The notes beneath the pieces are model-generated. The model saw nothing but the letters and a program-made list of their open reading frames with translations, was not told where the DNA came from and did no database searches. A stretch of DNA of 64,000 bases from a virus, in IMG/VR virus record IMGVR_UViG_3300042938_002732, positions 31,363 to 95,362 of that record; one strand, given 5' to 3'. This document shows positions 4,753-61,949 of this stretch, piece after piece (position 1 is the first letter of the stretch; the number at the start of each line of letters is the position of its first letter). The translations under genes and the position numbers were made by a program.

Positions 4753-5387
4753 TTCCTCTCCTGCTTATCCCCCGCAAGGCGAAGCGGGTGCATGTGGATG
4801 CCGGGTCTGGCATGGCGGTGCGTAAAATTTCGGGGAGGAATCTGCTCTCCCTACGGCGGCAGAGTGGGGCGAGGTTTGAGGGGTCGTGGTGGGTCACGGT
4901 GGATTCTGCTGGCCCGTCGCCGAAGATTATGGTAGATCGCGGGTATGTGAATAATATGGAGCCGACGATAGGGGGTGTGCCGATCGGCGGGGTGCTGCCG
5001 GACGGGGAGCCTGCGGCGGGCGGGCAGCCCTCGCTGGCCTACAGCGGCGGTGGTGTGGCTTGGGTGTGCTTGAAGATCACGCCCGATGCCAGTGGCAAGA
5101 TCAATGCAATGGGCGCGGAGCCGAAGCTCACGGCGGATGTAACGGTGGAGATCATGGGGGCGATCTCAGGCAAGGAGGGGGGGAAGAGTTGGTATTACCC
5201 CCTGGCCGCGCTATCCCAATACGGCAAGGTTGCGCAGATGGCGTATTTTGACCTCTCGTGCAAGGCTTACAAGAAGGGTGGCGACAAGGACTGGCGGTAT
5301 CGCTTGAGCTTGGAGGCGCTGACTTGGAGGAACTTGGAGGAAATCATTGCCGAGGATGAGGCGATACGGAAGGCGATCGCATCATGA
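4749..5387 (+). CDS. Putative tail protein (paralog family B, copy 1)
   Basis: ATGA overlap; RGYVNNMEP, GGQPSL and VAQMAYFD motifs shared with the next ORF. Confidence 0.6.
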   Translation: MIPLLLIPRKAKRVHVDAGSGMAVRKISGRNLLSLRRQSGARFEGSWWVTVDSAGPSPKIMVDRGYVNNMEPTIGGVPIGGVLPDGEPAAGGQPSLAYSGGGVAWVCLKITPDASGKINAMGAEPKLTADVTVEIMGAISGKEGGKSWYYPLAALSQYGKVAQMAYFDLSCKAYKKGGDKDWRYRLSLEALTWRNLEEIIAEDEAIRKAIAS

Positions 5388-5896
5388 AAAAATTTACGGG
5401 GGCTTGGGAGGTGCGCGGCGGCCTGAATGGCGTGCAGGGGTCGAACATGGTCGAGAAGGACATGGAGGGGAATCCCAAGAAAAAAGTGGGCAACGATAAG
5501 CTCATCGTCACGGTGGGGCGGGGCACGGTGAATGGCTTTGAACCGATCGTGAATGGCAGGCCGATCAGTGGCACGGGCGCCGATGGTCGCTTGATGCAGG
5601 GCGGTCAGCCGCAGATCGAGGGGCCGCTGGAGTTTGACGAGTTTTACCGCTGCTATGTGTGCATCAAAATCAAAATAAATCGATCCACAGGCAAGATGCC
5701 CACGCCTCCAGCGGAGGATGATCTCACGGTCGTGATCTCCAAGGGCACACGGCTCGGGCACTCCTACGGCAACGAATACTGGCTGCACCCGATCGCGACA
5801 TTTTCCAAGTCGGGGGTTCTCGCGCAGGTGGCCTACTTCGACTATATGCACTACGTGAGCAATGCTGGCCGCTACCACTATTTTGCCGCCATATGA
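5384..5896 (+). CDS. Putative tail protein (paralog family B, copy 2)
   Basis: ATGA overlap; RGTVNGFEP, GGQPQI and LAQVAYFD motifs. Confidence 0.6.
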   Translation: MKKFTGAWEVRGGLNGVQGSNMVEKDMEGNPKKKVGNDKLIVTVGRGTVNGFEPIVNGRPISGTGADGRLMQGGQPQIEGPLEFDEFYRCYVCIKIKINRSTGKMPTPPAEDDLTVVISKGTRLGHSYGNEYWLHPIATFSKSGVLAQVAYFDYMHYVSNAGRYHYFAAI

Positions 5897-7238: not shown

Positions 7239-10200
7239 ATGGCTTCCAACGAGTATATTTACGCGAACCTCAGCACGCGCGAAGCGACGGGATCGACGGG
7301 TTCCCCGCTGACTTTTTCTTGGGTGGCGGGGCAGAGCGTGTCCTACGCGCTGCGGTTTTTGCAGCGGGATAGTGCGGGAGCGCTTGGTGAGACGGGGCTC
7401 GATATCCTGAGTCTGCGCGCAGCGATCGGGCGCGAGGGGGCTTGGCCCGAGAGCGGGTGGTATAAAATAAAGGTGGGTTTTGCGCCTTCCGACTCCGCGA
7501 ATACCACGGAGAGAATTGATTTTAATGCCGGGGCGCTCGATGTGGAGGAGGCTCTCAATGCGCTCACGGGCAAGCCTGCCGAATTCCGCTGCGATGAGGG
7601 GGCGAATACCGTCTTGATCCGCCGCGTAGATGGTGGGGAAGTGACGCTCTCTGTGGTGGGCGATGGGCTGAGGCCGACTTCTTTTGGTAAAATACTTGGC
7701 GGCAGGAGATTCCCAGAGCGAAAGGCGCGGCTGTCGCTGGGTGGTGGCAGTGGATTGACCTTCGTCAGTAGGTTGGAGGGCGAGGCGGGTAATGGGATTT
7801 CCGTGCAATATGTGGCTCCGAGCACGCTGAATGCCGCAATGTCGGTGACTGTTGCTGGCAACAAGATCACGGTGGGCCTGTCGCGGGCATCGGGGGAGCT
7901 TACGGCGACGGCGGCGACAATCAAGGCAGCGGTGGAGGCCAGTGTGGAGGCGAGTGCCTTGGTGGGGGTGGTGATCCTCGATACGGGGCTCAGTGTTGCG
8001 GCGGCGCAGGCCGAGGCATTTCTCTCGGGGGGCATGAACCCGAGTGGCTACGAATACTCACTACAGCTGGCTCAGGCACCTGTGGTCTTTACGGACTGGG
8101 CAACGCGCAATCTACCGGCCGCGCCGGTCGTAACAAGAATTCAAACTGGAGGCCGGGTAGACGCCGGTTTTGTCACTACAATCTGGAATACAATTCAGGC
8201 CCTCTCCGTGCCGACAGATTTTCGCGGGGCGTATCAATTCAAGCGCGGGCTGAAGCGCTCCTCGCTGGTGAGTAAGGATGATGGCACGGTGGCGATCGCG
8301 CGGATTCTCAACGCTCTGCTGGCTGAGGAGGGCGGCACTGTGGTGGTGACAAACCCGAACAACAATGTGGCGCATATCGAGTTTGGCGGCACTTTTGCGG
8401 GCTACGACATTGCGAATCTGGAAATTGCGGTCTACTCCACGCCTCCCCCGGACTATGTTTTCAGTCTCGACTTGGGGAGCGCGGATTTGGCGGAAATGCT
8501 GCAGGACAAGGAAAGTGTCACGCTGCCCTTTGAGGTGGAAGCCACGGTGTGGGAGGATGTGAGCGACCCGACTCTGGGCACGAAGGTCATCAAGCTTTGG
8601 AAGACCACGGCGGCGATCAAGCGTAATGTGCTCTGGGATGCGCTGGCAGTGCGCCCGCCGATTGATTGGCTGCGCAGGCCCATGCCTGTGGACTATGTGC
8701 CGTTCGCGGGCACGCAATTTCTTGTCGGCCAGCAGGCGGCTTACACGACAGTGATTGGCAACGGGAGCACAAAAGTTTTCTCGGTGGCTCACGGTTTGGG
8801 CGGCGGGCTGGAGCAGGTGGGGCAGAGCGTGATTTACAGGGACGAGGGGGTGGTCTCGGTGGATGTGAGGGAGAACAAGGCCTCGGGTCGCCAACTGCGG
8901 GATGATGAGTATGTGCTACGATTTGTCTCGGCGGGCAGTGTTTCTCTGGAGTTTGACGAGCCGCCCGATGAGGATGGCTTGGTGGTGGTCGTGCTCGGCT
9001 ACGGGCAGGAAAGCGCCTTTACGAGCCACACGCACCCCATCGACCAGATCAAGACAATCGGCTTTGACGGGGCTACTGGCGAGTCGCTGCGCGTGATTTT
9101 GGAGGACTTCCAGCGCCGTATAGCGCGCTTGGAACTATTGATTCCACGAGGCAGCATAAGCCTCGGGAGTGGGTTGGAGAAGAAAAAGACGCAGATTCCG
9201 GCGATCGGCGAGATACTGCCGGATATAGCGATGGAAGGCGGTGAGGGCGAGCCGCTCTCGCTGGCGAGCCAGATCATCGCGCCCGCGCTCAAAGGCGATG
9301 CGCCGAGGGTCGTGGCTGGCACGGAGCTGGAAGACCAGAAGAAACTTTTCGATGCCGAGTTGCTGCGGGTCAAGGCCGAGGCGGCAGCAGAGCTCAAGGC
9401 CGCGCAGGAGGCCGCCAACAAGGCGGCTGAGGAGGTGAAAGTGAAGGTGGATCAAGAGGCTGCGCAAAAGAAAACCAGCATGATCTCTCGCGTTTCGATC
9501 GCCGAATTTGCCACGCGCCTCACGGCGACTGGCACGGCATCGCTCGTCGCATTGCCCAATCTTTATCCCTCTATGCGCAACGGCAAATACGCCTGGTTGC
9601 TTCCTGCTATTCATGATGCGGTCGCGCAGGATGTGTCGGCACTGCCGACGGCTGCAGCGGGAAATGTGTATCGCAATGCGGGGTCGCTGCCACTCGTGCT
9701 GCCTGGCGGTGGCGGGCGCAAGGGGCAGAGTGTGCCTGCGGGCGGATTTTTCGGTGGCGACGGGCGCGCTCTCTATGCGCTGCGGCGGGCAGGCACGACC
9801 ACGAGCTACCACCCGATCGAGATGGAGCGCGAGCTCATTCGCTTGGTGGTGCGCGAGGGTCAGTTCCCGCTGGCCTCCGAGTTGAGCCTCGCGTGGCAAC
9901 TAAATCTTTCCTTCCTGACTGAGACGCTGGTCGCGGGGGCGGGGTATCTCATGCCGGTAGAGGTGGCTCCCCTCCCCTCGGCCAGCACACCCGCTACCAC
10001 GGGCGCAAATGTGGGTGCTGTCGGACAGGCCGTGCTCCTGGCCTCGCCGCGCATCGGATTTTCCAGAGGCGTCTCGGAGACGCGGCAATTCTCGCTCAAG
10101 CTCGCTCGCAAGCTCAACGAAAGCGGGCAGCCTGTCGGCACAAGTCAATTCACCGATTACGTCGAGTCGATCGGGCTGGAATTCCCCCAAGGGGACTTCC

Positions 10201-44494: not shown

Positions 44495-46051
44495 TTATTC
44501 AATAGGTTGGAGTGTGTGTGGATCGACCTTGCCCCAGGATTTGGGGGGCAGGACTTCGAGATCGGCGGCTGTCTTCTCCTCGTTGATGGGGAATCCGATG
44601 AGCGTGGAGATTTCGCGATAGGTTGTTTCGAACTTATCGGCATCCGAGACGCGGCTGGGTTTCGGGATGAGGCCGAGTAAGACTTTCTTCACCGAGGGCC
44701 AGAGGGCTTGTTCGCGTGTGCCGTCTTCTCCGGTGAGGCAGAATGACCAATTCTTGTAGCCGTAGGTCTCTTTCTGTGAGTCATCTCGGATTGGGAAGGC
44801 CGTGGGGTTGTGGATGTAGCCCCACAGATTCTCGTTCACGGGGGTGCTTTGCATGGACTCGGCCTTGAAGGGGAGGCCGAAGACGGCAATGAGGTGGTCG
44901 ATGGGGGTGGTGAGCTTGTCGAGCGTGGCATCCTTGAGCGCGGTTTCGAGCTTGTCGCGCACGATGACCCAGCGTTTGCCTTGGAGCATACTGGCCTTGG
45001 CCTTCTGTTTGTCTTCGGGGCTGGCAGGGGCGTCGTCTTGGTTGCGCTCCTTCTTTTCCGATAGGAGGTAGCGAAGGGTGAATTTGCTATTTTCAAAGAT
45101 GAGCACCTTCTTGGCTCCCTCTTCCGGCGCGTCGGAGAAGCGTTGGTTCCATTTCTCCCACTCGCGTTGGTAGTGAGTGCCTTGGATCGTTACGGAGTCG
45201 CGGGCTATGACCGGGAGTTGTTCGCCCTCGCAGAGTCGGGTGTATTCCGCGTCGATGTGCAGTTGGCGGCGCGCCATGAAGCAAGCGGTGTTCATGCAGC
45301 GTCCGCAGTCTTCTTTTGCCGAGAAGTCGAAGAGGGACTTCTGCTTGGAGGAGTCGCAGGCGCAGCCGGGGCCGCAACCTTCCACGAAGGTGCAGGGATC
45401 ATTGAGCCACTCGCTGTTGGCGAGCGAGGCGAGGTATGGCGAGAGGCGATCTTCCAAGTCCTTGCGCGATGTCGCGAGGCGGATGCGGTTGGGGAAGTTC
45501 TCGTCTGCGTGTGGCAGGTTCGGCAGCGAGGCGAGGAGTTCCATCATCTCCGCGCTGAAGTGGTGCAACTCTCCCTTTGGCCCCCATGCTTTCAGGAGAC
45601 TCTCTGGCAGCGTGGCGAGTTGGTAGCGGCGGGATGTCCACTTTTCCGATTTGCCAAGGGCTGCGGCGAGGTGCTTGATGCCCTTCTCTCCGCGATCGAT
45701 GAGACGCTTGAGCAGGAGTGCCTCGGCGTAGGGATCGGGGTCGAGGCGCTGCAGGTTCTCGGTGAGGATCGTCTCTTCGAAGGTGTCGTCATCGTATTCC
45801 CGCACGATGGCTTTGAGCGCCTTCATTTCCGCTGCCATAGCGGCGGTGTAGCGGCGTGCGCCAGCGGCGATTTCGTAGTGCCCTTTTTTCTCGGGGTGTG
45901 GCCGGACGAGGATCGGGGTTTTCTGTTCCGCCTTGAGGGACTTCGCGAGTTCCTTGATGGAGGGTTCCGTCGGCTTGGGTTGCCGTGTATTCTGCGTGCT
46001 GATGTGGAGTTTTGCCAGCGGGATGAGCTGGACTTGTTCTGTTGTTGTCAT
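44495..46051 (-). CDS. parB: ParB/RepB/Spo0J family protein (PRTRC ParB-like architecture)
   Basis: PILVRP, EIAAGARRYTAA, ENLQR, HTH, then Cys cluster CGPGCAC...CGRCMNTACF. Confidence 0.85.
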   Translation of the reverse strand: MTTTEQVQLIPLAKLHISTQNTRQPKPTEPSIKELAKSLKAEQKTPILVRPHPEKKGHYEIAAGARRYTAAMAAEMKALKAIVREYDDDTFEETILTENLQRLDPDPYAEALLLKRLIDRGEKGIKHLAAALGKSEKWTSRRYQLATLPESLLKAWGPKGELHHFSAEMMELLASLPNLPHADENFPNRIRLATSRKDLEDRLSPYLASLANSEWLNDPCTFVEGCGPGCACDSSKQKSLFDFSAKEDCGRCMNTACFMARRQLHIDAEYTRLCEGEQLPVIARDSVTIQGTHYQREWEKWNQRFSDAPEEGAKKVLIFENSKFTLRYLLSEKKERNQDDAPASPEDKQKAKASMLQGKRWVIVRDKLETALKDATLDKLTTPIDHLIAVFGLPFKAESMQSTPVNENLWGYIHNPTAFPIRDDSQKETYGYKNWSFCLTGEDGTREQALWPSVKKVLLGLIPKPSRVSDADKFETTYREISTLIGFPINEEKTAADLEVLPPKSWGKVDPHTLQPIE

Positions 46052-54512: not shown

Positions 54513-54697
54513 GTCTTCTTGGCCTTGCGGCGGGCGCGCTTCGGGGTCTCTGGTGTGGCGGGGAGTTCCAGAGTGCGTGGTGGGAGGGTGGATTTGAATG
54601 GCTCTGTGGCGAGTATGACTTCCACAGCGAGGTTGGCGGCACAGATTGCCGCCATGCGGAGCAGGCGCTCCTGGTCTTGTTGGTTTATGTATATCAT
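54509..54697 (-). CDS. Small basic hypothetical protein
   Basis: ATGA-coupled to the JAB gene. Confidence 0.55.
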   Translation of the reverse strand: MIYINQQDQERLLRMAAICAANLAVEVILATEPFKSTLPPRTLELPATPETPKRARRKAKKT

Positions 54698-55773
54698 GTT
54701 AGTTGCATTAAGATTTCATCAAATCCCATTCCTGCATCATTGCAGAGGCCAAGGGTCTCTTCGGCGATGGCTGTTTCCTCTGGGGACAAGTTAGCGCCCA
54801 TGTGTGAGAGGTTTATGATGCCGGTGAGAGTGGCGATTGATATGCGCTCGCGCAGCATGAGCGCATCTATGTAGCACACGGCCATGTCCAGCTCGTGGTC
54901 TCCCATTCCGTAGTCATCTCGCTCGGGCATGGCGAGCAGGTGGGCGGGGGTGGTCTCTTTGGCGAAAGCGGTGCGGGGCACCCATTCTTTTTCGTTTTCC
55001 AAGCCGTTGTAGCCTCGGTAGTCACGAGTGGGCGTGGTAGCTACTGGCTTGATGGCCTCTTTGATGAGGTTTTCCGCCCAGCCTGGGGGGAATTGGAGTC
55101 GATCCTTGGGCACGGGCGTGCAGAGTTGGTATTTCACGATGTCCTCGCGGATACTTTCCGGCAGGGGCATAGGGAGTGGCGGTGCGTGGAACCAGTCGGA
55201 GAGCACGGCGGTGTAGTAGGCATGGCTGGCCTTGGAGGCCACGGAGCCATCTTCAGCAAGTGTGCCTGGGATCGTGAGAGAGACGCGGGCGTGGATGGTG
55301 TGGGCGGGGCTGTTGATGTTGCCGAGGGTGATGTGGATGCCCATCTCGGTCTCATCGGCGGAGTCTGTGCCGCTTTGGAAGGCTCCGGTGGAGCAGTGGT
55401 GGTGCGCTGTGCCGAACTTGATCCAGTTTCCGCCTGCCATCTGCTCGTTGAGTTGGCGCTCGTAGTCGGGGTTGTCGGAGAGTTCCTTGGCGGTCATGCC
55501 TGTGCCGTATTTCTGCGGGAAGGCGTGGGCTTTGAACTCGCCTGTGTCGGTATTAAGCATCAGTCGCACTTGGGTTTCCGACTTGGTTTCCTCGTAGCTC
55601 CATTGGAAGAAGGACACGATCTGCTGCCAGACGGCATCGGGAATCTTGGCCCCTGTCCATCGCATAGACGGCGAGGCTTCGGTGATCGTGACTTTGGACG
55701 GCACATGGCCGATAAAGCCATTGCCGAGATTGCGGAGTTCGTAGAGGGACTTGCTGTGGGATATGAGTTTCAT
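54694..55773 (-). CDS. JAB/MPN-family metalloprotease (deubiquitinase-like)
   Basis: SETQVRL catalytic Glu and HHHCSTGAFQSGTD, matching HxH-x7-SxxD. Confidence 0.85.
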   Translation of the reverse strand: MKLISHSKSLYELRNLGNGFIGHVPSKVTITEASPSMRWTGAKIPDAVWQQIVSFFQWSYEETKSETQVRLMLNTDTGEFKAHAFPQKYGTGMTAKELSDNPDYERQLNEQMAGGNWIKFGTAHHHCSTGAFQSGTDSADETEMGIHITLGNINSPAHTIHARVSLTIPGTLAEDGSVASKASHAYYTAVLSDWFHAPPLPMPLPESIREDIVKYQLCTPVPKDRLQFPPGWAENLIKEAIKPVATTPTRDYRGYNGLENEKEWVPRTAFAKETTPAHLLAMPERDDYGMGDHELDMAVCYIDALMLRERISIATLTGIINLSHMGANLSPEETAIAEETLGLCNDAGMGFDEILMQLT

Positions 55774-56015
55774 TTGTGGTGAGTGAGGTTGGGTCTGCGG
55801 TGTGGGCTTGGTGTGCGTGGCGGGGGTCTGCGGTATTGTGTGGGCGGTGTGGGTGGCGGGGTTGGCGCGCGGTCTTCGCTATCGGGCGGCGGTGGGCTGC
55901 TGCGCGATTGCCACGCAGCAACAAGCCAGATCACCCCTATGGCGAGCAGGAGCGGGGCGGCTCCTATGAAGAACGAGGCGATGAAGAAGAGGCCGAAGAC
56001 GGCGAAGTTTTTCAT
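55770..56015 (-). CDS. Small membrane protein with Pro-rich tail
   Basis: Hydrophobic N-terminal 35 aa; ATGA-coupled on both sides. Confidence 0.65.
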   Translation of the reverse strand: MKNFAVFGLFFIASFFIGAAPLLLAIGVIWLVAAWQSRSSPPPPDSEDRAPTPPPTPPTQYRRPPPRTPSPHRRPNLTHHK

Positions 56016-56581
56016 TCCTCGTCTTCGTCTGCTCCGTCCCGCTGGCTGATCAGCCTTTCGGCTTCTTCCATGAGGTCGTCGAGGTCGCTTTCGATGCAGA
56101 AATCCGTATCGTCTCCGCTTGTGTCGAACTCATAGTCGGAGCCATCCTCATCTTCAGTGTATTCAGAGATTTCGTTGGCAACATAGTCGCGCACCTCATC
56201 CATTCCCTGTTCCCAGATGGAGAGCGGGACTTCTATGCGGCCTTGCTTTACCCAGTCTCGGGTGTATCTGTTGTATCCTGTCTCTTTGGCATCCACTTCC
56301 ACAAACTCGCCCCGGCGGATTTCGTCTGCTTCGGGGTTGTGGGGGGGGGTCCAAGCTTTTTCCGGAGCGGGTATCGGCTTGAGGGGCTTGAGGGTCGCGA
56401 GCCAGGCTTCGATCTGCTCAAAGTTGGTCGCGCCATCCGGCACGGGGCAGTTGAACTTGATGCGCAGGAGCGCGCGGGTGTAGGGAGACATGGGCGCAAG
56501 CAGGACGAGATTTTTCAAGTCATGCGAGGGCCACTTGTAGGGTAGCGCCTCGGGGCGCAGGGTGTCGGTATTTGTTTCCAT
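56012..56581 (-). CDS. Acidic protein, paralog 2 (inside the Ubl cassette)
   Basis: WPSHDLKNLVLLAPMSPYTRALLRIKFNCPVPDGATNFEQIEAWLATLKP identical to paralog 1; D/E-rich C-terminus. Confidence 0.75.
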   Translation of the reverse strand: METNTDTLRPEALPYKWPSHDLKNLVLLAPMSPYTRALLRIKFNCPVPDGATNFEQIEAWLATLKPLKPIPAPEKAWTPPHNPEADEIRRGEFVEVDAKETGYNRYTRDWVKQGRIEVPLSIWEQGMDEVRDYVANEISEYTEDEDGSDYEFDTSGDDTDFCIESDLDDLMEEAERLISQRDGADEDEE

Positions 56582-56607
56582 AAATTATTGAAAGTCTTAT
56601 TGTAAGA

Positions 56608-57162
56608 CTAATCTTCCGTTTCGTCGTTGGTTCCGTCGCGTTCGGCAACCATGTCTTCGGCTTGCTCCATGAGGTCGTCGAGGTCGTCTTCGATGTCGAA
56701 GTCGTTCAAGATTGTTTCTGAGTAGTCGTAGTCGTTATAGCTATCGTCGGCATCTTGATCTCCGATTACATCTCTCACATAATCCCTGACGGCTCTCTTG
56801 CCTTGCTCGAAGACGGAAAGGGGCACTCGGATTTCGTCCCGCTTTTCGTAGGAACGATTGTAGACGCAGTATCCTGTCTCTACGCCAGTCACTAAAATGA
56901 ATTCCCCGAGGTCAACCTCGTTGCGGCGTCTCGGAGGCGCTGGCGGCAGCGGCGGTGGCGTGGGCGGCTTGAGGGTCGCGAGCCAGGCTTCGATCTGCTC
57001 AAAGTTGGTCGCGCCATCCGGCACGGGGCAGTTGAACTTGATGCGCAGGAGCGCGCGGGTGTAGGGAGACATGGGCGCAAGCAAGACGAGATTTTTCAAG
57101 TCATGCGAGGGCCAGTGGTAGGGCGGTGCCTCGGGGCGAGGGGCTTCGATGTTTGTTTCCAT
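56608..57162 (-). CDS. Acidic protein, paralog 1 (inside the Ubl cassette)
   Basis: As paralog 2; starts METNI directly after the ThiF stop. Confidence 0.75.
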   Translation of the reverse strand: METNIEAPRPEAPPYHWPSHDLKNLVLLAPMSPYTRALLRIKFNCPVPDGATNFEQIEAWLATLKPPTPPPLPPAPPRRRNEVDLGEFILVTGVETGYCVYNRSYEKRDEIRVPLSVFEQGKRAVRDYVRDVIGDQDADDSYNDYDYSETILNDFDIEDDLDDLMEQAEDMVAERDGTNDETED

Positions 57163-57166
57163 AGGG

Positions 57167-57871
57167 TTAGGCAGCGTCGGCATAGCGGGTGGTCTCGGTG
57201 GAGGTGGCGGTGTTGGAGAAACCCAGCGGCCAGAACGGGCGGGTTATTTGCGGGTCGAGCTTGGGTTTTTCGATGAAGACGAAGTTCCACAGCAGGAGCA
57301 AGTGGGCGGATGCCATGTGGTTGGCGATAGGGGTTTGTGGCACTTCGCGCAGACGGGCCTCGGAGTTGCAGCCGCTGGCATGGACGGGCGAGCCGCTGTC
57401 GTCGGTGAGCATCTCGGGCCAGCGCACGCGCGGGTCGCGGGGCGTGCCTTTGTCGGAGGGGGAATACCACCAAGACTCTGCGCCGATTGTCGAGTTCGCG
57501 GCAGAGAGCACGGTGACTCTCGCAGCGGCATCCGCCGCATCGAGTGCGTGCAGACGGGCCAAGTGGTTATCGGCCATTATGATGATGCTGTCGCCATCCT
57601 TGACGCGGAAGGCGCTGTCGATGTAGAAGGTGGATGTCTTTAATCTCCCATACCAGGGGAACTGAGCTGCCAGCGCGGTCGCCTTGTAGGCGTCGATGTG
57701 TTCGCGGTCGAAGTTCTGCCTGCGCAGGTTGTGCTCTTCGAGTCGGTCGCCATCGTGCAGGATGACGCGGTGGCTGCGGATATCGTCGTCCTGACAATAC
57801 CGGAGCGTGCGGAGGAATGGCGGCAGGAAGTAGCTGGCTACGCCGCCGCAGCCGATGATGTGGGTCGTCAT
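57167..57871 (-). CDS. ThiF/E1-like adenylyltransferase
   Basis: IIGCGGVAS, HDGDRLEEHNLRRQNF, YKA, ADNHLAR, candidate catalytic SGC and QTPIAN. Confidence 0.9.
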   Translation of the reverse strand: MTTHIIGCGGVASYFLPPFLRTLRYCQDDDIRSHRVILHDGDRLEEHNLRRQNFDREHIDAYKATALAAQFPWYGRLKTSTFYIDSAFRVKDGDSIIIMADNHLARLHALDAADAAARVTVLSAANSTIGAESWWYSPSDKGTPRDPRVRWPEMLTDDSGSPVHASGCNSEARLREVPQTPIANHMASAHLLLLWNFVFIEKPKLDPQITRPFWPLGFSNTATSTETTRYADAA

Positions 57872-58110
57872 AGGTTTTGGATGGCTGAGAGGATTTCTTG
57901 GTTTTCGTTGTGCTTCTTTTTCATCTGCTCTTTGTGGTAGTCCCTCTTGTGGAGGTAGTCGGCAGTATCCATAAACTTCCGTAGTGCGCGCACGCTGGCC
58001 TTGTCTGTGAGGTGCGCTCGCAGGGTTTCGTGGAGAAATTTCTGGTCTGCTGAGTCCTCATCCAAGTCAGGAGTCTGCAGTTGGCATTTCAGCTTGTCGT
58101 AGAGGTTCAT
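57868..58110 (-). CDS. Small hypothetical protein between E2 and E1
   Basis: ATGA-coupled on both sides. Confidence 0.65.
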   Translation of the reverse strand: MNLYDKLKCQLQTPDLDEDSADQKFLHETLRAHLTDKASVRALRKFMDTADYLHKRDYHKEQMKKKHNENQEILSAIQNL

Positions 58111-58838
58111 ATAGCGATAGATTTGAAGAATTTGTCAAAGATGTCGTTGGATACCGAACGGGCGCTGTCGCGGTAGCGGCGCTCCTCCCAGCCTTGGTAG
58201 TCGGGGGTGAGTTCCTCGCCAGGAGTCCAGAGGAGCAGCGGGATGGGGTTCGTGACTGGGTGTAGGTCGTTGTTGGAATTGGCGGATTGAATCCAATCCA
58301 CAGCGGCTTCGAAGGCTTCCAGTATCGGCAGTGTCTGGACGCGGGTGTGCTCGTCGCGCCAGGCATTGCCCATGCAGATCCGGCCATCGTCGTAGGTATT
58401 TGAGAAAGGCGGGCGGTAGATGTTTTCGCCCACGGCGTGCCAGCACATATATGGCTCCCGCTGCATGGTGAGTCGGCCATCCACATCGAGGTCGAATCTG
58501 GCGAAGAACCACATCTCGTGCCCTGGCGGCGGGGTAAAGTCGAGGCTCTGGTGGATCGACATGCTGTTGTCGTAGAAGACGGCATGCACCTTGGCCGTGC
58601 CGTCGGGAAGGGTGATGGGGGCGAAGTGTGTTTTGAGGCGCACGCTCTCCAGCTTGCGGCCAAGCACAAGCTGCTGGGATGAGATTTTGGCTGTGTATCC
58701 CAGCGAGGGGAAATCGCGGATCACCACCGGCTCGCTCCGCGCGATGTTGCGGAGCATCTCGTTGGCGTTGGCGATGGGCGTGAGGTCGGCGCGGCGGAGT
58801 TGGCCGTCTGTGGCGTCGATGAGGTAGAATGAGTTCAT
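58107..58838 (-). CDS. Prokaryotic E2-like protein (family D / PRTRC protein B-like)
   Basis: YRPPFSNTYDDGRICMG active-site motif and SANSNNDL. Confidence 0.8.
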   Translation of the reverse strand: MNSFYLIDATDGQLRRADLTPIANANEMLRNIARSEPVVIRDFPSLGYTAKISSQQLVLGRKLESVRLKTHFAPITLPDGTAKVHAVFYDNSMSIHQSLDFTPPPGHEMWFFARFDLDVDGRLTMQREPYMCWHAVGENIYRPPFSNTYDDGRICMGNAWRDEHTRVQTLPILEAFEAAVDWIQSANSNNDLHPVTNPIPLLLWTPGEELTPDYQGWEERRYRDSARSVSNDIFDKFFKSIAI

Positions 58839-58906: not shown

Positions 58907-59131
58907 TCAGGCGGCCTTCGAGTGCGCCAGCTTCTGGATGAGGAGGGTGTCTCCTGCATACAGCGTGGTGTTCGATTCCGCCTTGGCGCCGGAGATGAGA
59001 CCTTCGACATTGCTGGTGTCGAAGTTCAGGACTGCGGCGTAGTTAGCGTTGGACAGGATTTGTCCAACCGTCGTGCCTTCCAGCACATCCACTGCGAGGG
59101 TGTTGAGACCCGATTTGAGATTTACGAGCAT
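58907..59131 (-). CDS. Ubiquitin-like (beta-grasp) protein, 74 aa
   Basis: VDVLEGTTVGQIL...LISG...TTLYAGDTLLIQ ThiS/MoaD/Ub pattern; AGAAAGGA RBS; first gene of the E2-E1-JAB cluster. Confidence 0.75.
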   Translation of the reverse strand: MLVNLKSGLNTLAVDVLEGTTVGQILSNANYAAVLNFDTSNVEGLISGAKAESNTTLYAGDTLLIQKLAHSKAA

Positions 59132-60858: not shown

Positions 60859-61731
60859 TCAGGCTTTGATCGTCGCGAGTTCGGCGAGTTCCACGATGCG
60901 GGCTGTCACCCGATCCTGGTCGATCTCGGAGAGGCGGGTCAACCCAGCCTCTACCTCGTCGAGCAGGCGCAGGAGATCCTCCGCTGTGATCTTCGCGGCG
61001 GGCGCGGGCGGGGTGTTCGCCTTGGGAGCCTCGGGCGCAGCCTCGGGTTTCTTGGCGTCCGGCTTCTTGGCGTCCGTCTTGGCGTCGGGCTTGGCCTCGG
61101 GCGTCTTGGCCTCGGGTTCGTTGCCGGCGGCATCGAGTGCGGCCTTGCGATTGCGGAGTTCCTCCAGCTCGGCCTTTTCGGCGACGAGTTTCTCGGCGGC
61201 GATCTTCTCGGCGGCGAGCTTGGCGGCCTTGGCTTTCTCCTCGGCGGCGGTGCGTTCCTCTGCTGTCAGTCCCGTCTCGTAGAGACTGGAGAGATCATCT
61301 GCGAAGTCGGCGGAGTTGCGGATCACCGCAACCGTCTCGGCGGGCGTGAGCTGCCGCTTGCTGGTCTTGGTCTGCACTCGGCAGATTTGCCAGCAGTCGT
61401 TGAAGGCGAGGCTGTTGTATTCCTCCTCGGTGAGGTGCTCGGCTTCCACCAGGTCATAGACTTTGGCGGCATAGCTGGCGTTGCTCACAGTCCCCTTCTT
61501 GATCCCCGCATCCTGCAGGAGTCGGAAGATGGACTGTCCGGCTTCGAGATTGCGCTCGATGACGCGGAACAATTTCCCCATCGCGCTGAAAGCGCGCTGG
61601 GCGGACAACGCTTCGATGGCGAAGCGTTCGATGCGTTCGGACTGCGGAAGCGCAACGGCCTCCGCGAAGGAGAGTGCCATGAGGGCACTTGCAGATGCGC
61701 CAGACGGCGCGGTTTTTCTTTTAGCTGGCAT
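60859..61731 (-). CDS. Hypothetical protein with A/K/E/P low-complexity linker
   Basis: Strong codon bias, own terminator, two palindromes upstream. Confidence 0.75.
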   Translation of the reverse strand: MPAKRKTAPSGASASALMALSFAEAVALPQSERIERFAIEALSAQRAFSAMGKLFRVIERNLEAGQSIFRLLQDAGIKKGTVSNASYAAKVYDLVEAEHLTEEEYNSLAFNDCWQICRVQTKTSKRQLTPAETVAVIRNSADFADDLSSLYETGLTAEERTAAEEKAKAAKLAAEKIAAEKLVAEKAELEELRNRKAALDAAGNEPEAKTPEAKPDAKTDAKKPDAKKPEAAPEAPKANTPPAPAAKITAEDLLRLLDEVEAGLTRLSEIDQDRVTARIVELAELATIKA

Positions 61732-61949
61732 ATATTTACTTTCTAACCCGCTCAATACGATTGCGTTTGAGTCTTATGATAAGACTCAAAAACGAATCGC
61801 AGGAGACACAACGCGGGCGGGTGTCGCGCTGTGCGGAAATTCAAAAATCACCAATAACCGATTGCGTTTGAGTCTTATGATAAGACTCAAATCCGAATCA
61901 CCGATTCGGGATGGACGGCTATTTAAGGGGGGGGAGGAAAAGGCGCGGG

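Follow-up and report, generated by a model that had tools for sequence, protein, structure and literature searches.

Concerted evolution of one domain in a pair of acidic phage genes within a divergent ubiquitin-like protein cassette

How can two neighboring phage genes share one short segment almost letter for letter and diverge strongly right after it, and what could be the role of proteins built in this way? These questions are raised by a locus of the virus record IMGVR_UViG_3300042938_002732, a complete record of 95,362 bp with terminal repeats, of which we have analyzed the right-hand 64,000 nucleotides (the window). The two genes, copy A (56012-56581, 189 amino acids) and copy B (56608-57162, 184 amino acids), lie on the minus strand inside a cassette of genes related to modification by a ubiquitin-like protein (Ubl). 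Both encode acidic paralogues (57% identical overall, E = 2e-58), and the whole 95,362-bp record contains exactly two matches to this family, which are copies A and B. The reading frame of copy B is open back to 57183 (191 amino acids); alignment with 30 homologues places the start at the METN of 57162 and not at this upstream end.

An earlier note on this DNA had described a segment of about 149 bp that differs at one base between the two genes and encodes an identical module of 50 residues, followed by a proline-rich linker and diverged acidic domains. All of this was reproduced with exact coordinates. The segments at 56385-56533 (copy A) and 56966-57114 (copy B), both on the minus strand, are identical at 148 of 149 positions, correspond to nucleotides 49-197 of both genes and differ only in a synonymous C/T at gene position 79. 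They encode the stretch WPSHDL...ATLKP of the N-terminal module (N-module), and residues 17-66 are the same in both proteins. Upstream of the block, the first 48 nucleotides of the genes match at 37 positions; downstream, the identity drops at once, and the C-terminal domains (C-domains) are 57% identical in nucleotides and 45% in amino acids. The linkers contain 33-62% proline and the C-domains 31-35% Asp plus Glu, with net charges of -23 and -27.

The domain structure was modeled for copy A with AlphaFold2 from an alignment of 54 sequences (predicted local distance difference test score, pLDDT, 86). In this model a proline-rich N-terminal peptide (residues 1-19) precedes the N-module, a bundle of three helices (20-28, 33-43 and 54-63). 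The proline-rich linker (64-82), whose length varies in the family, leads to an alpha/beta C-domain (93-183). This domain opens with a long beta-hairpin (93-119), continues with two helices and an acidic loop, and closes with a third strand and a last helix; an acidic tail extends past residue 183.

Purifying selection and gene conversion

Two processes have to be distinguished in the conservation of the N-module. Between phage lineages its synonymous sites are saturated (synonymous divergence, dS, 1.1-3.5), while its nonsynonymous divergence (dN) does not exceed 0.18; the protein sequence of the module is under strong purifying selection across the family. Since synonymous sites are saturated at this distance, a DNA or RNA element located inside the block was rejected as the reason for its identity.

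Within a genome the pattern is different. In the window pair, dS is 0.06 for the N-module versus 1.36 for the C-domain. The longest run of identical codons between copies A and B has 38 codons, which none of 20,000 column shuffles matched, and codons for the same amino acid differ in 2 of 49 cases in the module versus 21 of 45 in the C-domain (Fisher p = 1.4e-6). The contrast recurs in the gene pairs of other metagenomic loci, with N-module and C-domain dS of 0.25 and saturation in L001, 0.33 and 1.8 in L002, and 0.25 and 1.36 in L003; in L010 both are saturated. Fisher tests on same-amino-acid codons gave p values from 1.4e-6 to 1.3e-3 for the window, L001, L002 and L003. A recent duplication followed by fast change of the C-domains was rejected, given the C-domain dS of 1.36 in the window pair.

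The phylogenies of the two domains tell different histories. The N-module DNA tree places the window copies as sisters (support 100/97) and rejects the grouping of copy A with L001_2, the relative of its C-domain (approximately unbiased test, p-AU 0.0014). The C-domains split into two deep clades (support 92/95), with both window copies in clade I, and their tree rejects within-genome pairs for L001 (p = 0.003) and for L002/L003 (p = 0.02). For the sharp boundary, the earlier note had offered either gene conversion or strong selection, and both find support: it very probably results from purifying selection on the module combined with its conversion within the genome. As both ends of the 149-nucleotide tract lie inside the gene, the tract is better explained by a patch of conversion than by a single crossover. 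What we see is a clean and statistically supported case of concerted evolution in a pair of phage genes, limited to a single domain.

A more trivial explanation would be an assembly artifact, i.e., a collapsed or mis-assembled repeat that is really one gene or two unrelated genes, a possibility that the earlier note had named as one that would undo its observation. The database protein P0001, encoded on a contig of only 722 nucleotides, speaks in its favor by showing that either assemblers or the phages recombine at the block: its residues 1-66 are exactly those of copy A and its residues 67-184 exactly those of copy B (window 56384-56581 and 56608-56964), which means either natural recombination across the 149-nucleotide block or a mis-join. 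Against this, two copies with near-identical modules of their own occupy the same place on five further contigs from metagenomes, which represent three phage lineages. Besides, the block in the window differs internally at one position and is bordered by unique sequence at either end, and the genome it belongs to (95 kb) is complete, has terminal repeats and contains exactly two matches. The repeated finding of the arrangement makes an artifact very improbable indeed.

The C-domains show another picture. Their diversity in related phages, which the earlier note had singled out for examination together with copy number, falls into two old clades that have been exchanged between phages, with rapid amino acid change. 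In the very close pair L002/L003 the cassette reaches its maximum ratio of dN to dS (omega) in the acidic genes (0.59-0.67), versus 0.05 for the E1 gene and 0.15 for the E2 gene. Compared with L001, the closest relative of the window, the backbone shows dS values of 0.15-0.32 and the N-modules 0.24-0.28, whereas the C-domain of copy A reaches 0.73 and that of copy B is saturated, an unrelated allele. Two other regions of the cassette stand out in the same comparison, the last ~100 residues of the JAB peptidase (54694-55000, dS 1.63) and a gene for a protein of 80 amino acids (dS 0.85). The C-domains of both copies, the JAB C terminus and the 80-residue gene are exchanged modules of a mosaic.

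A palindrome of 17 bp, AGTCTTAnnnTAAGACT, lies between copies A and B (56593-56609) and includes, on the coding strand, the -10-like hexamer TACAAT. The early arm has eight occurrences of the palindrome (50947, 51933, 56593, 58839, 59389, 59562, 61770 and 61871), where 0.05 are expected. All two-copy loci have it between the acidic genes (for example at 7973 in L001, 739 in L010 and 2476 in L012), and it is absent beside the acidic gene in one-copy loci. The palindrome is likely to act as operator and promoter, and it may possibly serve as a shuffling junction. Module exchange is well known in phages, e.g., in tail fibers with a constant N terminus and a variable C terminus, or in the shuffling mediated by promoter-stem-loops in T4-type phages. 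Here too a conserved repeated segment anchors recombination that swaps divergent downstream domains, with a repeated regulatory palindrome at the junction. Unlike tail fibers, the acidic genes are non-structural, early, and part of a Ubl operon.

The cassette and its acidic family

The location of the pair inside a Ubl cassette, as the earlier note had it, was confirmed. The order on the minus strand is putative Ubl, E2-like gene, 80-residue gene, E1, copy B, copy A, a gene for a protein of 81 amino acids and JAB, and the genes are tightly packed around the pair: four nucleotides separate the stop codon of E1 from the start of copy B, and copy A and the 81-residue gene overlap by their stop and start codons (ATGA). 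To assess how constant this arrangement is, we have read 11 distinct related loci (L001-L012, L004 and L009 being the same contig). The acidic gene comes directly after E1 in all 11 and precedes JAB wherever the contig extends far enough, in some loci with a gene for a transmembrane protein between the acidic gene or genes and JAB. There are one or two copies per locus: two in the window, L001, L002, L003, L010 and L012, and one in L004, L005, L006, L007 and L008; L011 is cut off. Homologues detached from Ubl genes, which would have spoken against the linkage, were not seen among the loci with a readable gene context. The four IMG/VR contigs matched by the E1 subtype are also the four matched by the acidic family, and distant acidic homologues are tied to E1 homologues (48-66% identity) by longest contigs of equal size (7617, 5157 and 5147). 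Copies A and B are position-fixed accessory genes of a Ubl-E2-E1-JAB cassette that is a very divergent version of the PRTRC type (ParB-related, ThiF-related cassette; NCBIfam TIGR03734-03742).

The components of the cassette, all on the minus strand, are recognizable to different degrees. The putative Ubl (58907-59131, 74 amino acids, ending in LAHSKAA) matches no family and was assigned by its size, its position and the earlier note; it is 81-95% conserved and its C terminus is LAHSKAA or LAHSKAV in all seven loci compared (window, L001-L004, L008 and L012). Upstream of it, at 60859-61755, there is a gene for a protein of 298 amino acids with a Lys/Ala/Glu-rich segment and a weak histone-H1-like match, which is kept in L001, L002, L003 and L008. 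The E2-like protein (58107-58838) gives weak matches to Prok-E2_D (21 bits, cut-off 25) and PRTRC_B (14.7 bits, cut-off 131), both over the cysteine motif GRICMGN. Between E2 and E1 lies the 80-residue gene (57868-58110), of variable sequence. In L001, inserts that are non-coding or hold small reading frames separate Ubl from E2 (~290 nucleotides, 5283-5571) and E1 from the first acidic gene (~170 nucleotides, 7239-7411).

The E1-like protein (57167-57871) is a ThiF-type adenylating enzyme with a GCGGVA loop, NLxRQ and DN motifs and an invariant Cys168. Its scores stay below the cut-offs (18.8 bits versus 144.75 for TIGR03736, PRTRC_ThiF; 16.7 versus 28.1 for Pfam ThiF), and we regard it as a distant relative of PRTRC_ThiF, not a member by curated score. 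On the other side of the pair, the 81-residue protein (55770-56015) consists of one hydrophobic helix and a proline-rich basic tail. Its gene overlaps copy A at one end and JAB at the other and is translationally coupled to both; the protein is found in L001-L004 and absent from L005-L008. The JAB/JAMM peptidase (54694-55773) has the motif HxHx7Sx2D and an N-terminal domain with MRW, both conserved across seven loci, followed by a hypervariable helical C-terminal domain; it reaches only 17.8 bits with PRTRC_A (cut-off 101.8). A protein with a ParB_N domain is encoded on the same strand at 44495-46051, ~8.6 kb from the cassette, and the phage also encodes a gpA-type terminase, fiber proteins with RCC1 and Ig repeats, a primase and a SNF2 helicase.

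The resemblance to PRTRC cassettes lies in the clustering of Ubl, E2-like, ThiF-type E1 and JAB genes on a mobile element, in a ParB gene on the arm that has the cassette, and in the weak matches of JAB, E2 and E1 to PRTRC_A, PRTRC_B and PRTRC_ThiF. On the other hand, these matches are all far under the curated cut-offs, the Ubl lacks a C-terminal glycine, and the acidic two-domain family matches no PRTRC model (neither copy at E values up to 0.1), so that the family is an addition made in this phage branch. Operons of type 6d have a JAB N-terminal domain with conserved Arg and Trp (Iyer et al., 2006; PMC1779556). The JAB of this phage shares the conserved Arg-Trp in its N-terminal domain; unlike in type 6d, no alpha-helical protein of that type was recognized in the cassette.

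The acidic family has been found so far only in uncultured phages. A word-indexed search recovered 48 clusters, all metagenomic and unnamed, and an exhaustive HMMER pass over 1.84 billion representative proteins found 18 members. Neither copy has a match in Pfam, NCBIfam, PHROG or PADLOC, a Pfam scan of all 54 family members gave only scattered chance matches, and a profile search of the sequences of the Protein Data Bank (PDB) returned nothing under E = 0.16. The ESM Atlas held no usable match, tblastn of copy A found none in cultured phages and plasmids, searches with E1 and JAB found none in the phage collection, and GTDB genomes scanned with the acidic family and with E1 were also negative. 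No fused forms were found among proteins of 546-2000 residues, and neither domain was seen with an unrelated partner domain, the exceptions being two or three database entries, short or truncated and possibly chimeric.

Possible roles of the acidic proteins

What could a constant module joined to an exchangeable acidic domain do in such a cassette? In the reading that we favor, the N-module would be a docking surface for a conserved component of the cassette (E1 or Ubl being the best candidates), while the variable acidic C-domain would engage a variable protein of the host or of the phage, probably one that is basic or binds DNA. The whole protein would be an exchangeable target-recognition subunit, with a logic similar to that of E3 or F-box proteins, bringing its partner to the tagging machinery, and two copies would provide two specificities. 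An accessory subunit of this adaptor type is favored because it brings together the strict linkage, the constant non-acidic module, the hypervariable acidic C-domains and the variable copy number. As a statement about function it is possible rather than probable. The N-module is conserved about as well as Ubl and E1, and uncharacterized genes of such operons have been proposed as possible E3-like adaptors (Iyer et al., 2006; PMC1779556). The likeness to F-box proteins and other exchangeable receptors of ubiquitin ligases is in the pattern only, a constant docking module with divergent target-binding domains in paralogues; unlike a true relative, the acidic family has no sequence or fold relation to them.

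The N-module is slightly basic (charge +1 to +2), and the residues invariant across the family are P30, R36, R40, P48 and P119, of which R36 and R40 are one helical turn apart on helix 2 of the N-module. The earlier note had emphasized that the module contains a cysteine, which turned out to be misleading: many homologues have Arg, Ser, Asn, Lys, Val or Asp instead of this residue (FNCPVPDG), and a catalytic role was rejected because it is not conserved. Structural comparison of the copy A model brought no convincing match. The best Foldseek hit against the PDB had E = 1.0, a fold search of BFVD gave one uncharacterized phage protein (E = 1.4e-3, template modeling score only 0.23-0.26), the best Z in a wide fold search (VIA) was 3.4, and for the N-module the likeness to carrier proteins was weak (Z 3.0 or lower). 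Many distant members (P0038, P0042, P0043, P0049, P0050, P0053 and P0055-P0058) have an extra N-terminal domain of ~100 residues, modeled as an SH3-like beta-barrel (pLDDT 75; best Z 5.3, to the integron cassette protein 3g1j). As modeled, this barrel is generic and adds no functional clue.

The charge of the C-domains brings in another explanation. Across the family they carry a net charge of about -19 to -35 (median -27) over ~105 residues, with 34% Asp plus Glu, and end in poly-acidic tails. Ocr (gp0.3 of T7) and ArdA are anti-restriction proteins that mimic DNA through an extreme density of negative charge, and the acidic proteins could similarly be nucleic acid-mimic decoys whose C-domain imitates DNA and blocks a host DNA-binding protein of defense or repair. 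The cassette would then only regulate the acidic proteins or be merely co-expressed with them, and the N-module would serve for oligomerization or stability. Besides the similarly extreme charge, the position of the genes in the early arm of a mobile element, together with ParB, helicase and clamp, and the fast-evolving C-domains swapped between phages as in an arms race agree with this. However, neither by fold nor by sequence do the acidic proteins match Ocr, ArdA or another mimic of solved structure (mimics do come in many folds), and Ocr and ArdA are not known to have a constant non-acidic module or a link to a Ubl cassette. A pure decoy leaves unexplained why the genes keep a fixed position between E1 and JAB (where both flanks are on the contig) and why the most conserved part is the module that is not acidic. 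We consider it unlikely, if still a serious competitor. The adaptor and the DNA-mimic ideas, both put forward in the earlier note, would alike be compatible with a module that stays constant beside a hypervariable acidic domain and with a raised dN/dS.

The strict linkage can also be read differently. In the CBASS defense system (cyclic-oligonucleotide-based antiphage signaling), the E1-E2 fusion Cap2 conjugates a protein of its own operon, the CD-NTase, and the JAB protein Cap3 reverses the conjugation. By analogy, the acidic proteins might be in-operon substrates that are tagged with the Ubl, or regulators that restrain E1 or JAB until the conditions of infection change. Translational coupling of the genes, with E1 on one flank and with the transmembrane protein and JAB on the other, would suit such a role, and so would an N-module conserved to a degree close to that of Ubl and E1. 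The phage also has, like CBASS, an E1/E2/JAB set with a dedicated in-operon partner, and its E1 weakly matches the E1-E2 models of PADLOC. Unlike in CBASS, E1 and E2 are separate genes, the Ubl is separate, the partner has no nucleotidyltransferase, and the cassette is carried by a phage and not by a host defense island. A conserved acceptor lysine was rejected, as no lysine is invariant in the family, and the idea leaves the hypervariability of the C-domains and their two old clades unexplained. It seems to us unlikely, a little more so than the decoy. The possibility that the acidic protein is itself the real modifier, cut after a C-terminal R-D-G, was also rejected: only ~60% of the members have the glycine, and RGLI, RDN or RDED stands at the end of several.

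The two ideas of adaptor and mimic might even be combined. DNA-mimicking C-domains would capture host DNA-binding defense proteins, the module would hand them over to E1/E2, and conversion would keep the docking compatible amid the swaps of an arms race. This is an attractive scheme of low probability, which we place below each of the explanations it draws on. Overall, we rank the target-recognition adaptor first, then the DNA-mimic decoy and then the in-operon substrate or regulator.

Several observations weigh against the explanation that joins conversion of the module with an adaptor function. The Ubl ends in Ala or Val, never in Gly, in the seven loci checked, and conjugation by the cassette is itself only putative. 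The module matches no known domain that binds ubiquitin, E1 or E2 (fold Z at most 3.4). The C-domain clade and the variable JAB C terminus do not co-vary; such a co-variation was looked for as a candidate and none was seen. The two-copy lineage of L010/L012 shows no homogenization, and for the window the C-domain tree keeps the within-genome pair possible (p = 0.42), for which reason conversion in the window is argued from the contrast in dS and from a tract that is bounded on both sides. With these points counted, the adaptor mechanism together with the evolutionary history is still, tentatively, the best explanation of the locus as a whole.

Significance for PRTRC-type cassettes

PRTRC-type Ubl cassettes are widespread on plasmids and phages, and the main question about them is what they tag. 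We have found no experimental test of such a cassette in the literature searched. The acidic family described here is specific to a phage branch of these cassettes. Because it is cassette-specific and combines a conserved module with a fast-evolving, swappable acidic domain, it is the most plausible place in which to seek the choice of target, and the acidic proteins could be used as baits for the partners of the cassette.

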